Source of the DNA: an uncultured Pseudomonadota bacterium
GTDB lineage: Bacteria > Babelota > Babeliae > Babelales > RVW-14
Assembly (NCBI GenBank): GCA_964493325.1
Contig: CAZBMD010000005.1
Span: 779-64,778 of the forward strand
Length of the DNA stretch: 64,000 nucleotides
Reading direction: 5' to 3'
Shown: positions 48,492 through 63,940 of the stretch, one piece after another
How the letters are laid out: each line of letters starts with the position of its first letter
How positions within the stretch are numbered: the stretch's first letter is position 1
Notes under the pieces: generated by a model
The model's input: only the letters and a program-made list of their open reading frames with translations
Told to the model about the DNA's origin: nothing
Database searches by the model: none
Translations under genes and position numbers: made by a program

Positions 48492-48943
48492 TCATCAGTA
48501 AGCTCAAGTACACGGTGGGCTTTGTCATAATCAAAGCCTTCCATGCCATGCACAACAAGACCATCAAGACTCCCTTGCAAAGCAATGCTTATCCAAGCAG
48601 CTCCAGCATCAAATGAATGAGTGCGGCAAGGTTTGCCATTAAACTCAAATGTTTTTTTAGATATAACCGCCACAAGAGCTGCCGCATTTTTTGCCCACGA
48701 TTGATTAAACGGGACAAGTAATGAAAATAAATTATCCCATGCTGGTGTTTGTCGATGAGCATAAATAAAACGCCATGGTTGAGCATTGTAAGACGATGGC
48801 GCCCATCGACCCGCCTCTAAAAGCGTTAAAAGTTTTTCATGTGTAATCGCTTGCCCCGACATGGCACGCGGCGATGTACGCTTTAAAAATAGATCATTAA
48901 TTGGATGCGTTGCTTTACGTTTATTCATCATCATCCCTTTCAA
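48356..48943 (-). CDS. Nitroreductase-family oxidoreductase
   Basis: 'LKRTSPRAMSGQAITHEKLLTLLEAGRWAPSSYNAQPWRFIY'. The start is ambiguous among TTG 48943 and ATG 48934, 48931 or 48928. Confidence 0.85.
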   Translation of the reverse strand: MKGMMMNKRKATHPINDLFLKRTSPRAMSGQAITHEKLLTLLEAGRWAPSSYNAQPWRFIYAHRQTPAWDNLFSLLVPFNQSWAKNAAALVAVISKKTFEFNGKPCRTHSFDAGAAWISIALQGSLDGLVVHGMEGFDYDKAHRVLELTDDYCVDVMFAVGCPGLVEDLPAEMQKGEEPSDRKPLQDLIFEGKMK

Positions 48944-50399
48944 TTTTTTCTTTCATAAAAGCCGGCTTTTTTTTAAGCGCAGCACGAATTCTTTGAGAAC
49001 TTGTCAGTTGATTACTCTGACGTCGAGCCACTTTTTTTCTGTTACTTTTCGCATGGGGCTGCTTTTTGCCACGAGTAAAACGATCAAGCTTACTTCTAAC
49101 CGGTCGTTTTTTAATCGGACGAACTGGGGTCGTCGCAGGCTCAGCCTCTTTTTCATCCACCTGAGGCACCACAACAGGCTGCGGTACAGGCTCTGGTTCA
49201 GCAGGTACTACATGAGTTTCGGGTTGAGCGGGAATCATGGGATGCAATTCAACCGGTGGAACTATGGGCTCCAACACAGGCTTTGGTTGAGGAGCTGGTT
49301 CTGCATGAGGTTGCACAGCAACAGGAGGTTCTGGATTTATAACAATTTTACTGAACGTTAAAGGATTGCCCCCTCCACCAATTCCGACGTATTTTAGTTC
49401 TTTTGCAATCGCCCCATCAATATCAACCTGTGCAATCAACTGTAACCCAACGTCTTTGCCTTTTCCAAAGCTTATCGTAGAACCTTCGAGCATAATCCAG
49501 AATTGAGAACCCTCTGGCGTAGTAACAAGCGACTGAGGCTCATTTTTTGCTTCAAATAATTTTTTCTCACCAGCAAAAATAGCTGTTACGGTATTTCCCT
49601 CTTGCCCGATCATAATACGCACAATAGCAGGATTCAGCTTTTTTTCCGTAGAAAGAACAATAAAAATATTATTTTCACCAGCAACTTTTATCTGAAATTT
49701 CAGCTTACCTGGTGTAAAATCCCAGTTATCGTGAAATAAAATTCTATTTTTTTTATGCACTGCAGGGATAAATGAAAATGAAGATCCACCAGGATTTATA
49801 TCGCCAGGAACAGGCTTGATGACCTCAATCTCTAACCGTGCAGCATTTTCTGAAAGTACTGTAGCTTGCGCATTGCCCAGCGATGAAAAATAGAGAAATC
49901 GTCCGGTGCCAAAATTTTGTAATATCACCGATGACAAACTCGAAGCATCTTTGGGTTTTATAACCCACTGCTCAGTTTGATCACTAAAATTTTCTGTTTT
50001 TTTTCCAATTCGTACCGATGCCGACGCAGCATCGTCATACATGTTGTTCCAACCATTTATTTTAAATCCAAACAACTCTTTATTCTTGTCAGCACGCATG
50101 ATAAAAAAATGACAATGCGGATCTTTGGCAAAATTCCCAGGCTTGAGTTTAAGATTCTGCCCGTCAAAATATACATATGCAGGGTTTTCTTGATCTGAAG
50201 ATTTTAGAGCAACCAACGTTCCTGCTGGAAGCAAGTCATGCATTGGATAGTGTTTGACATCAATTTTTGAAACAAATTGCTGAGATTTTTCTAAAGGAGA
50301 ACTTCGAGCAAAAAGAAAAAGGGTCAAAGAAAAAAACAGAATCATGACAAAGCATGCTGCAGGAAAACAGCACCGGCAAAAATCTTTGAGAAATTTCAT
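48921..50399 (-). CDS. Membrane-anchored protein: beta-trefoil-like region, jelly-roll (FAMeT-like) domain, Pro-rich linker and basic tail
   Basis: ATG 50399 is preceded by AGGGGGACGTT. TM segment FPAACFVMILFFSLTLFLFA. The domain 'GGSSFSFIP..LKFQIKVAGENNIFIVLS..VRIMIGQEGNT..QFWIMLEGSTISFGKGK..LKYVGIGGGG' (49335..49802) is shared with 51509..54622 and 61745..63940. Confidence 0.8.
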   Translation of the reverse strand: MKFLKDFCRCCFPAACFVMILFFSLTLFLFARSSPLEKSQQFVSKIDVKHYPMHDLLPAGTLVALKSSDQENPAYVYFDGQNLKLKPGNFAKDPHCHFFIMRADKNKELFGFKINGWNNMYDDAASASVRIGKKTENFSDQTEQWVIKPKDASSLSSVILQNFGTGRFLYFSSLGNAQATVLSENAARLEIEVIKPVPGDINPGGSSFSFIPAVHKKNRILFHDNWDFTPGKLKFQIKVAGENNIFIVLSTEKKLNPAIVRIMIGQEGNTVTAIFAGEKKLFEAKNEPQSLVTTPEGSQFWIMLEGSTISFGKGKDVGLQLIAQVDIDGAIAKELKYVGIGGGGNPLTFSKIVINPEPPVAVQPHAEPAPQPKPVLEPIVPPVELHPMIPAQPETHVVPAEPEPVPQPVVVPQVDEKEAEPATTPVRPIKKRPVRSKLDRFTRGKKQPHAKSNRKKVARRQSNQLTSSQRIRAALKKKPAFMKEKIERDDDE

Positions 50400-50415
50400 A
50401 ACGTCCCCCTTTACA

Positions 50416-61716: not shown

Positions 61717-61744
61717 AAATTTTATTCCTTTTTTAATTCACGAG

Positions 61745-63940
61745 CTACGCTGGTACCGCGGATGGCTTTTCAGCCGGCTTTACAGTCTCAGGCGCTGGTT
61801 TTGCTTCTGAGGCAGAAACTGCTGCCACAGGAGCTGTTGGTTCAACCGGTTTTGTTTCTACGGCTGGGGCCGTCGTTTCTGTTGTTGGAACTACTTTTTT
61901 TGTTTTTACAGGACGCTTGCTTACCGATCGTTTACCCGATTTTGATGCAGCTTTTTTCGCTACAGCTTTTTTAGGCGCGGACTTTTTGGCTGCTGATTTT
62001 TTAGGAGCTGATTTTTTGGTTGCTGATTTTTTAGGAGCTCGCTTGGTAACTGTCTTGGTTTTTTTAGTTACAACTTTTTTTGCAGGAGCAACTACTGCAT
62101 CAACTGCAGGTTTTGCTTCAGCGCCAGGAACAGAGAGCACTGCCGCTTTGTCTACAGGCTTTGCTTCAACTTCACCAAGCTTTGCAAGCGGAACAACAGG
62201 AGCAATTACTGGTTCTTCAAAAGTGAAGATACGACCATCTGTACTGAGCGCTGTCAAACCACTGTCTGTCATCTTGATATGTTTAAAGGTTACGCCAGCA
62301 GGCATATCTTGCTTAACCCATGGATCTTTAGACATGGTTCCTGGTTGACGGTAGAAAAGAACACCATCTTTAAGCGCGTAGAACACATGCTCTGATTGAC
62401 CATCACGTACACGAACACCAACAGTCATGTCGCTACCTTTAAAGCCTTCTTCTTCAAATCCTGTTGGCACACTAATCGCCGGTTTTGTATCAGTTGAAGC
62501 AGGCGTCGCCGCAGGAGTTGTTGTAGAAGGTGCTGCTGGGGTAGTAGAAGGGGTTGCTGCAGGAGTTGTTACCTCTGCCGAAGCTGCTGACTCATCAATT
62601 TTTACAGCGCCTTTAATCTCGATATTTTTTATTTCAACCTTGACTGCGCCACCGCCAAAACCAACATATTTAACAAACTTTAATGGGTTTGAATCAACAA
62701 ACTTGCCAATAATGCTCTTGCCAAGTTCTCGACCACGACCATACCATACAGTACCTTGGTCAACTTGAATCCAGTATGAGCCCCATTCTTGGCCATCGGC
62801 TGGTTCACCACCAGAAAGAAGCGCTTTTGGATCGCCATTTTTCTTTACATCAACAACAAACGGAGCACTCTCGTATGAGAATTCTCTGTCAATTATGTCA
62901 TATTTCTTGGTATGACCAATAACCGTCTTGGTATTAAAATCCTTACCTATGGTGACATGATACATACCCGAAGACAGCTGCTTTGCAACTGGCGAAAACG
63001 CTATTGCAAGGCGTCGTTTTGCTCGAGCATCAAACACAACCGATCCAGAACCTTCTACCGGGAACTTCCAGCTTTCACTGAATGTCAAATTGCGGTTCAA
63101 AATTGGGTGGTAGGTAAACTCTGAACTACCAGCCACTTTTGCAGCTTCTGCTACAGCCGCAGCCACAAGCTCAGGTTTTCTTTCTACCGGCGCTTCAGCT
63201 GGCTTTGTATCAGCAGGCTTGATTTCAGCTGGTTTTGTATCTGCAGGTTTTACGTCTGTAGGCTTAACTATTTTTTTCGCAAGTTCTTTAATCTTGCTTC
63301 GAACTTTATCATCAAGACGAACAAGCCGGAACTTTGATCCATCAGTTTTTTCTTTTGTAAGCATTGCGTTGTTGTCATCGCCAATACTGAGATATTGCCC
63401 ATCATCTGTTTTTAGTGATGCAATACTGTACGGACCACTAGAAAATTCTGGCGTAAAGAATAGTGTTACACCACCTTCGCTAACCAGACTTATTTTACCA
63501 AAGCCTAATGACCCGTTAGCCTTGCGTTGAAATGCAGTACCACTTTTTGAAGACATCAACCCTATTTGATCACCCTTGCGAGTAACTTTAAATTGATACG
63601 CCCTATGATTAAGAGGAATATCTTTTTTATCCTCACGGCTTAAAGTTCCATCTTCATTTTTAATCGGACGAAGTTGAGCATTTTTAGCAGACAATAAAAC
63701 AATGGTTTGACCGTCGGTAAAATGATCAAGTGGATTTTTTTTAGTTGTTTGAACCAATACTGATGCAGCCTGAGGCAAAGCGCTAACTGCAGCAGTTACC
63801 GCTGGAGCAGCACTTGTTGTAGCTATTTTTGAAGCTTCAGTTGCTGTACCAGCATCCGCAGGAGCTACATCAGAAACCAAAGCAAGAGCAAGCGCAAGAC
63901 TCACCCCGGCCAAAGCCAAATTTCGTTTTAATACCTTCAT
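61745..63940 (-). CDS. Secreted protein: beta-trefoil-like region, KP-repeat linker, FAMeT-like jelly-roll, tectonin-like unit and Lys-rich tail (paralog class of 51509..54622)
   Basis: ATG 63940 is preceded by GGAAGGAGAGTAGTCTT. Signal 'NLALAGVSLALALALVSDVAPADA'. KPxxx pentapeptide repeats at 63191..63265. Jelly-roll block at 62609..63097 ('VVFDARAKRRLAIAFS..YHVTIGKDFNT..SYWIQVDQGTVWYGRGR..VKYVGFGGGA'). Tail 'KRAPKKSATKKSAPKKSAAKKSAPKKAVAKKAASKSGKR' (61895..62086). Confidence 0.85.
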   Translation of the reverse strand: MKVLKRNLALAGVSLALALALVSDVAPADAGTATEASKIATTSAAPAVTAAVSALPQAASVLVQTTKKNPLDHFTDGQTIVLLSAKNAQLRPIKNEDGTLSREDKKDIPLNHRAYQFKVTRKGDQIGLMSSKSGTAFQRKANGSLGFGKISLVSEGGVTLFFTPEFSSGPYSIASLKTDDGQYLSIGDDNNAMLTKEKTDGSKFRLVRLDDKVRSKIKELAKKIVKPTDVKPADTKPAEIKPADTKPAEAPVERKPELVAAAVAEAAKVAGSSEFTYHPILNRNLTFSESWKFPVEGSGSVVFDARAKRRLAIAFSPVAKQLSSGMYHVTIGKDFNTKTVIGHTKKYDIIDREFSYESAPFVVDVKKNGDPKALLSGGEPADGQEWGSYWIQVDQGTVWYGRGRELGKSIIGKFVDSNPLKFVKYVGFGGGAVKVEIKNIEIKGAVKIDESAASAEVTTPAATPSTTPAAPSTTTPAATPASTDTKPAISVPTGFEEEGFKGSDMTVGVRVRDGQSEHVFYALKDGVLFYRQPGTMSKDPWVKQDMPAGVTFKHIKMTDSGLTALSTDGRIFTFEEPVIAPVVPLAKLGEVEAKPVDKAAVLSVPGAEAKPAVDAVVAPAKKVVTKKTKTVTKRAPKKSATKKSAPKKSAAKKSAPKKAVAKKAASKSGKRSVSKRPVKTKKVVPTTETTAPAVETKPVEPTAPVAAVSASEAKPAPETVKPAEKPSAVPA

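Follow-up and report, generated by a model that had tools for sequence, protein, structure and literature searches.

A proposed two-gene split of a tectonin-type propeller

Two gene pairs on the minus strand of a 64 000-nucleotide stretch of contig CAZBMD010000005.1, the whole of which is referred to hereafter as the window, each consist of a large gene (BigA, 51509..54622; BigB, 61745..63940) followed closely by a small one (SmallA, 50476..51498; SmallB, 60778..61716). On balance, and with modest confidence, we favour the reading that each pair encodes one tectonin-type six-bladed propeller, split 2+4 over two polypeptides that are exported and carry polybasic tails. The blade count is two in the C-terminal part of each Big protein (51896-52195 in BigA, 62210-62476 in BigB) plus four in each Small protein (50884-51354 in SmallA, 61162-61614 in SmallB); these regions lie on the minus strand, as do all features below for which no strand is given. 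A preliminary description of the same DNA had credited the big proteins with one tectonin-like unit, a count that has to be changed to two propeller blades; its account of the small genes as encoding a signal peptide, four tectonin-like repeats, a spacer and a Lys-rich tail agreed with our analysis. The 2-blade module is preceded by a conserved 'LP.GF' strand and ends in 'Y.YNWP', the four blades of the small proteins begin at 'GSW.E', and a conserved W/F, as read from the sequences, opens each blade repeat unit.

Six blades in one chain were found in single-chain relatives only, the window proteins having two or four. One of these relatives is P0158, in which a signal peptide is followed by two blades and, beyond a linker, by four more. 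Profiles built from the split proteins alone mapped onto the single chains over their full length, in order and abutting one another (211-300 next to 304-457, 543-617 next to 628-774, and 30-121 next to 144-305). Pseudo-fusions of Big and Small aligned along true single chains, with the cut falling exactly between 'Y.YNWP' and 'GSW.E', the latter marking the start of mature Small. In a single-chain relative of 832 amino acids, the Pfam Tectonin match crosses this junction (residues 517-691).

The AlphaFold model of P0158 (pLDDT 73, pTM 0.72) contains 24 strands in the pattern 1+4x5+3, and its best match in the PDB was tectonin 2 of Laccaria bicolor (5FSB; E 1.3e-14, target TM 0.82, 286 columns). 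As modelled, P0158 is a closed six-bladed propeller. Tectonin lectins, including those of Physarum and tectonin 2 (5FSB/5FSC; PF19193), belong to the same blade sequence family as the proteins described here; tectonin 2 shares about 22% sequence identity with them. Glycan binding between blades, with O-methylated sugars and LPS as ligands, characterises tectonins. What sets the present proteins apart from tectonins is the division of six blades over two genes and the fusion to trefoil domains, PF12248 and polybasic tails.

A lone C-terminal 2-blade module was followed by a 4-blade gene at five out of five loci (pair A, pair B, L089, L006 and L091), a count that covers modules with a readable downstream neighbour (the downstream sequence of a further module, in L088, is missing) and includes two loci holding orthologues of the window's own pairs. 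Neither ThirdA, a family protein without blades that is encoded downstream of pair A, nor the six-blade single-chain proteins are followed by a small gene. These data bear on the alternative that Big and Small act independently, with the 2-blade module of Big homotrimerising in the manner of RSL and BambL, maybe via its helical stalk, Small self-oligomerising, and gene adjacency reflecting co-regulation. Six-bladed propellers do arise in nature by trimerisation of identical 2-blade chains, as in RSL and BambL, and the long helical region of BigA could oligomerise. However, the match of the 2-blade modules to the single chains is confined to blades 1-2 and that of Small to blades 3-6, presence and absence of the two modules coincide, four blades tile poorly into a six-fold ring, and no Pfam match to the fucose-lectin family of RSL and BambL was obtained for the window proteins. 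We therefore regard independent lectins as unlikely.

The split propeller that we favour resembles RSL and BambL in being a propeller lectin completed from incomplete chains; in those lectins the ring consists of three copies of a single small protein, belonging to a different sequence family, whereas two different chains from adjacent genes are proposed here. To our knowledge, natural propellers completed from fragments are mostly homo-oligomers. In Sec13-Nup145C and Seh1-Nup85, a blade or strands of a second polypeptide close the propeller ring, but these are eukaryotic 6+1 WD40 assemblies of coat and pore complexes and are neither lectins nor operon gene pairs.

Paralogy and domain families

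The preliminary description had called the encoded products lectin-like multidomain proteins, and this was borne out by homology to Tectonin (PF19193) and PF12248 and by a beta-trefoil profile match. BLASTP comparison of BigA and BigB gave an E value of 4e-10 over 320 columns, covering a common block of about 155 amino acids and the blades, and SmallA and SmallB matched at 5e-15; the pairwise similarity thus extends well outside the low-complexity tails. BigA and ThirdA (48921..50399) are related at 7e-50 (34% identity, 341 columns), in agreement with the earlier claim that ThirdA reuses the trefoil and ~155-amino acid blocks. A recent duplication of the pairs was rejected because identity between the paralogues is no higher than 24-29% and because a distant relative has best matches to both cassettes in the same order around the asparaginyl-tRNA synthetase gene (AsnRS).

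For Tectonin (gathering score 30 bits), SmallB scored 40.4 (2.9e-10), P0158 39.7 and the 832-amino acid single-chain protein 38.8. SmallA alone gave no PF19193 match and is linked to the family through SmallB. In the PDB, the blades of SmallB also matched propeller blades both natural and designed.

The common ~155-amino acid block corresponds to Pfam PF12248 ('Methyltransf_FA', the 'FAMeT' domain), with scores of 39.7 bits in ThirdA (49329-49793; 5e-10) and 38.8 bits in BigB (62609-63136; 9.5e-10) against a gathering score of 24.2. The corresponding block of BigA (52220-52681) scored 15.9 bits, under the cut-off, yet is homologous to that of ThirdA in the alignment given above. The family is named after crustacean FAMeT, which raises the alternative that the block is a true farnesoic-acid-type methyltransferase and that the proteins are enzymes. 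No S-adenosylmethionine-binding family was matched in Pfam, the block sits in exported multi-lectin proteins, and the catalytic role of the PF12248 domain is disputed even in arthropods; an enzymatic function is highly improbable. PF12248 is common to arthropod FAMeT/DM9 proteins and to ThirdA and BigB, but the arthropod layout, in which tandem domains occur with DM9 repeats, was not found: the proteins here are bacterial and exported, and their single PF12248 copy is joined with trefoil and tectonin domains without any DM9 match in Pfam. A tandem PF12248 pair occurs in one metagenomic relative only (L088).

The trefoil-like regions form one family, with two members in BigA (53321-53695 and 52856-53215) and one each in BigB (63356-63742) and ThirdA (49860-50255). 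The presence of such regions in the big genes had been noted earlier and stands, with the qualification that their number differs between the two. A profile of seven trefoil segments matched the FGF-1-derived Symfoil beta-trefoils across the entire domain (E 2.5e-8, spanning profile positions 17-124) and, weakly, FGF-1 itself; no match at E <= 1 was obtained to any of the named trefoil families of Pfam (Ricin_B_lectin, Fascin, FGF). Searches of the family proteins against NCBIfam and PHROGs gave no match, and a phage origin was rejected for want of a PHROG match. The earlier statement that no described system has this composition holds as far as NCBIfam and PHROGs, which were silent, and the characterised systems considered, none of which covers the set. 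All the folds are known; it is the combination of a 2+4 split across genes, this set of domains and polybasic tails that is new.

Relatives and conservation of the gene pair

The family appears, judged by its sequences, to comprise rare, uncharacterised exported multi-lectin proteins. A profile search run exhaustively over 1.8 billion representatives recovered only a handful of proteins with the build of the small gene (signal peptide, four blades, Lys-rich tail), and a synteny scan anchored on AsnRS returned 80 loci, none of which carries the family, the best AsnRS match (69%) being from a TM6/Dependentiae genome. No paper tying tectonins to Dependentiae was found in a literature search.

The two genes of the pair are kept as neighbours in other genomes, as the preliminary description would predict. 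Near-identical strains keep the whole arrangement, and a closer relative of pair A (L091) repeats the arrangement of that pair. In a distant relative represented by L005 and L089, AsnRS is 77% identical and the family proteins are about 30% identical, with synteny around AsnRS kept; here an 818-amino acid Big protein (trefoil, PF12248, two blades, tail) precedes a 327-amino acid Small protein. The same relative encodes unsplit versions: the 832-amino acid protein, composed of trefoil, PF12248, six blades and a Lys-rich tail, and a 937-amino acid protein with a coiled coil, six blades and a Lys-rich tail. Split pair and unsplit versions coexist in the L089 locus. The best match to BigA in L089 (32-42% identity) is an 1132-amino acid protein with a coiled coil, two trefoils, PF12248 and a tail, which lacks blades and is not followed by a small gene. 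On an unrelated short contig (L006), a coiled-coil protein ending in two blades and a tail is followed by Small, and in L090 Small lies behind a gene ending in a K/R tail, the visible part of this upstream gene being its end only. The metagenomic relative L088 (3-2990, minus strand) has a complete tectonin propeller at its N-terminus, continues with two PF12248 domains and a PQ-rich linker, and carries in its C-terminal part a 2-blade module on its own, with a tail that is D/E-rich and acidic instead of basic; it was detected in metagenomes with a codon pattern made by hand, a scan there with the PF12248 alignment having found nothing. The family diverges much faster than housekeeping genes; fast evolution is common among host-interaction proteins.

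The position of single-chain versions next to a split pair in L089 could also be taken to mean that the pairs are decaying pieces of a broken single-chain gene, without joint function. Against this, blade 2 of Big is followed by a spacer and tail belonging to that chain, Small is equipped with a signal peptide of its own, neither half is disrupted in strains or in relatives at about 30% identity, and two independent paralogous pairs are cut at the same point. Decay is very unlikely. The pairs had been described earlier as a functional two-component unit. The reading as a functional unit is supported; because single-chain versions exist, one protein split in two genes is preferred over a two-component system.

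Polybasic tails and predicted surface anchoring

BigA (1037 amino acids) starts with an N-terminal hydrophobic anchor followed by a helical region of about 250 amino acids, and BigB (731 amino acids) with a signal peptide. Both end in a spacer and a Lys-rich tail (51512-51895 in BigA, 61748-62209 in BigB). SmallA (340 amino acids) and SmallB (312 amino acids) each have a signal peptide, four blades and a Lys-rich tail, the spacer being Pro/Ala-rich in SmallA and Ala/Thr-rich in SmallB. ThirdA (492 amino acids) combines a signal or anchor sequence with a Pro-rich spacer and a basic tail. Among all 60-residue stretches of the window, the five richest in basic residues (38-47% K+R) lie in these five family proteins, whose tails contain 23-34% Lys, have a net charge of +20 to +33 per 100 residues and show S/T/A-P-K-K-like repeats. 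A short motif recurs near the tail ends of BigA (KKSVSTKRP, ~51560), SmallA (KKSVTKRPVSKRP, ~50530) and BigB (KRSVSKRPVK, ~61900), which suggests that the tails are homologous, beyond mere compositional likeness.

Globular domains, a Pro-rich spacer and a polybasic tail follow one another as they do in surface proteins with a non-covalent anchor, and signal peptides and architecture together suggest a putative location on the cell surface. The tails are predicted to serve either in anchoring to the bacterium or in targeting host polyanions. The Pro-rich spacer and polybasic tail on each chain would then act as a stalk and an electrostatic anchor to an anionic surface, provided by the envelope of the bacterium itself or, alternatively, by polyanions of the host, and the complex would be an adhesin of a host-dependent bacterium. 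A functional analogy is offered by mycobacterial HBHA, an adhesin that likewise has a polybasic Lys/Ala/Pro-rich C-terminal tail, and a coiled-coil region as in BigA; its tail binds heparan sulfate, but HBHA has neither lectin domains nor a Sec signal and shows no sequence homology to the present proteins.

The same tails, in their lysine content, charge and repeats, are reminiscent of histone H1, and the split propeller might be real while the proteins are released effectors whose tails target host DNA or anionic host membranes. Genes for eukaryote-like WD40 and cytosolic phospholipase A2 (cPLA2)-like lipase proteins in the window suggest a host-associated lifestyle, in keeping with this idea. 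The sole export signal seen, however, is of the Sec type, an N-terminal signal or anchor; lectin, Pro-rich spacer and terminal anchor are arranged as in non-covalently anchored surface proteins, and the Lys-rich tail of HBHA acts on the bacterial surface. Release as effectors is given a low probability.

Proposed assembly of the split propeller

In the scheme that we propose for a surface-anchored split propeller, Big would carry the variable modules, namely a helical stalk, one or two beta-trefoils and a PF12248 block of beta-sandwich type, and would end with blades 1-2, while Small would supply blades 3-6. Having their own Sec signals, Big and Small would be exported separately, and after leaving the cytoplasm the two pieces, of two and four blades, would dock into a closed propeller forming a multivalent glycan-binding head; together with trefoil and PF12248 it would make up a multi-lectin head. 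A blade in each chain may receive a strand from the partner chain. In tectonin 2, Trp3 contributes to the sixth sugar site along with three residues of the last blade, Ser200, Asn216 and Tyr222 (PMC6359319). Since the N-terminal strand and the last blade meet at this site, the two sugar sites at the junctions would be composite, with contributions from both chains; the strand pattern of the P0158 model and the tectonin 2 site suggest both strand exchange between chains and composite junction sites.

Several observations weigh against this scheme. The AlphaFold model of BigB, based on an alignment of three rows, reached a pLDDT of 34, and that of P0158 has its lowest confidence (pLDDT 45-75) in the first strand and the two N-terminal blades, so that the details of strand exchange are uncertain. 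SmallB contains an extra C-terminal W-strand, 'GRWVKQ', after blade 4 (61162-61200), which could close its last blade without a strand from the partner; SmallA and most relatives lack it. The 2-blade module of L088 is joined to an acidic tail, and the existence of homotrimeric 2-blade lectins makes hetero-assembly one route among others to a full propeller. Independent loci are few, representing about four lineages, and glycan binding, surface exposure and the ligands of the tails are elements that we infer.

With these points in mind, we propose tentatively that the pairs could represent a natural heterodimeric propeller lectin, in which a signal peptide and a polybasic anchor are present on both chains, the chains interlock after export and the junction sites are composite, and that the locus may record fission or fusion in progress within an undescribed family of lysine-tail-anchored adhesins of a host-dependent lineage. 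Beta-propellers are thought to derive from single blades, and designers assemble propellers from fragments. If the proposal is true, the conserved 2+4 split over two genes, with the unsplit form adjacent, would be a natural and testable case of repeat-protein cutting and reassembly, and a rare natural lectin assembled from two different proteins. It would also provide a pointer to the attachment machinery of poorly known obligate host-associated bacteria, in which three lectin-type folds would be joined to a polybasic anchor of an unusual kind. For annotators it serves as a warning that neighbouring 'hypothetical' genes can be two halves of one domain.

Gene organisation and expression signals

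Open reading frames for BigA, SmallA, ThirdA, BigB, SmallB and ThirdB (58808..60718) were all found on the minus strand at the coordinates assigned to them in the preliminary description. The starts of ThirdA (50399) and BigB (63940) agree with protein sequences in a public collection. SmallA starts 10 nucleotides past the stop codon of BigA, behind AAGGGGTGAT (AAGGGG motif), and SmallB starts 28 nucleotides past that of BigB, behind an AAGGA motif, in line with the 10-28 nucleotides reported before. No hairpin was found inside either Big-Small gap, each of which contains a purine-rich ribosome-binding site. Hairpins followed by a U-run were located after SmallA (50416..50448; -20.9 kcal/mol, z -4.4) and after SmallB (60737..60768; -20.6 kcal/mol, z -5.2), no shuffled sequence folding equally well in either case, and the strong hairpins noted earlier after each pair are thereby confirmed. 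They appear to be terminator-like ends of the respective Big-Small units, and the close spacing, the ribosome-binding sites and the single terminator per pair fit a predicted co-transcription of Big and Small.

ThirdB, a signal-peptide protein of 636 amino acids encoded downstream of pair B, has no domain in common with the family, and its membership in the unit is not supported by sequence comparison. Searches of ThirdB in Pfam, NCBIfam, PHROGs and PDB sequences gave neither a family nor a structure match, and the caspase fold proposed for it earlier was rejected for lack of support in any of the four. In a near-identical strain (L001; AsnRS 99.6% identical), the counterpart of ThirdB (3701-5815) shares only 59% identity and has 704 amino acids; ThirdB is a hypervariable or swapped allele among conserved neighbours. 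A protein with a weak DnaJ-like_C11_C match adjoins the family in two lineages (L089, 6770-7435; L001, upstream of BigB), and the same weak match lies inside the Big protein of L089. This segment may be a further shared module.

Other genes of the window

Between the cassettes, on the plus strand, lie three tandem paralogous genes (55037-57299) of about 240 amino acids each, whose products all carry a KKKRRKK stretch in addition to a signal peptide and a hydrophobic segment. The trio gave a weak, sub-threshold ETRAMP-like match, and its place in L089 is taken by two PP2C phosphatase genes. Four tandem open reading frames of 689-709 amino acids are present at 698-9026 (minus strand), and the first, which was the one scanned, has eukaryote-type WD40 repeats. 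A eukaryote-like lysophospholipase domain of the cytosolic-phospholipase-A2 type is encoded at 28585-30021 (plus strand; PF01735, 1.2e-30). The WD40 and cPLA2-like genes, the AsnRS match and a contig of 1.35 Mb in one strain fit a reduced, host-associated bacterium, which would be small and is probably intracellular. At 15657-17855 (minus strand), the window encodes a 732-amino acid protein with a C-terminal Peptidase_S74 domain, an intramolecular chaperone typical of phage tailspikes and fibres.

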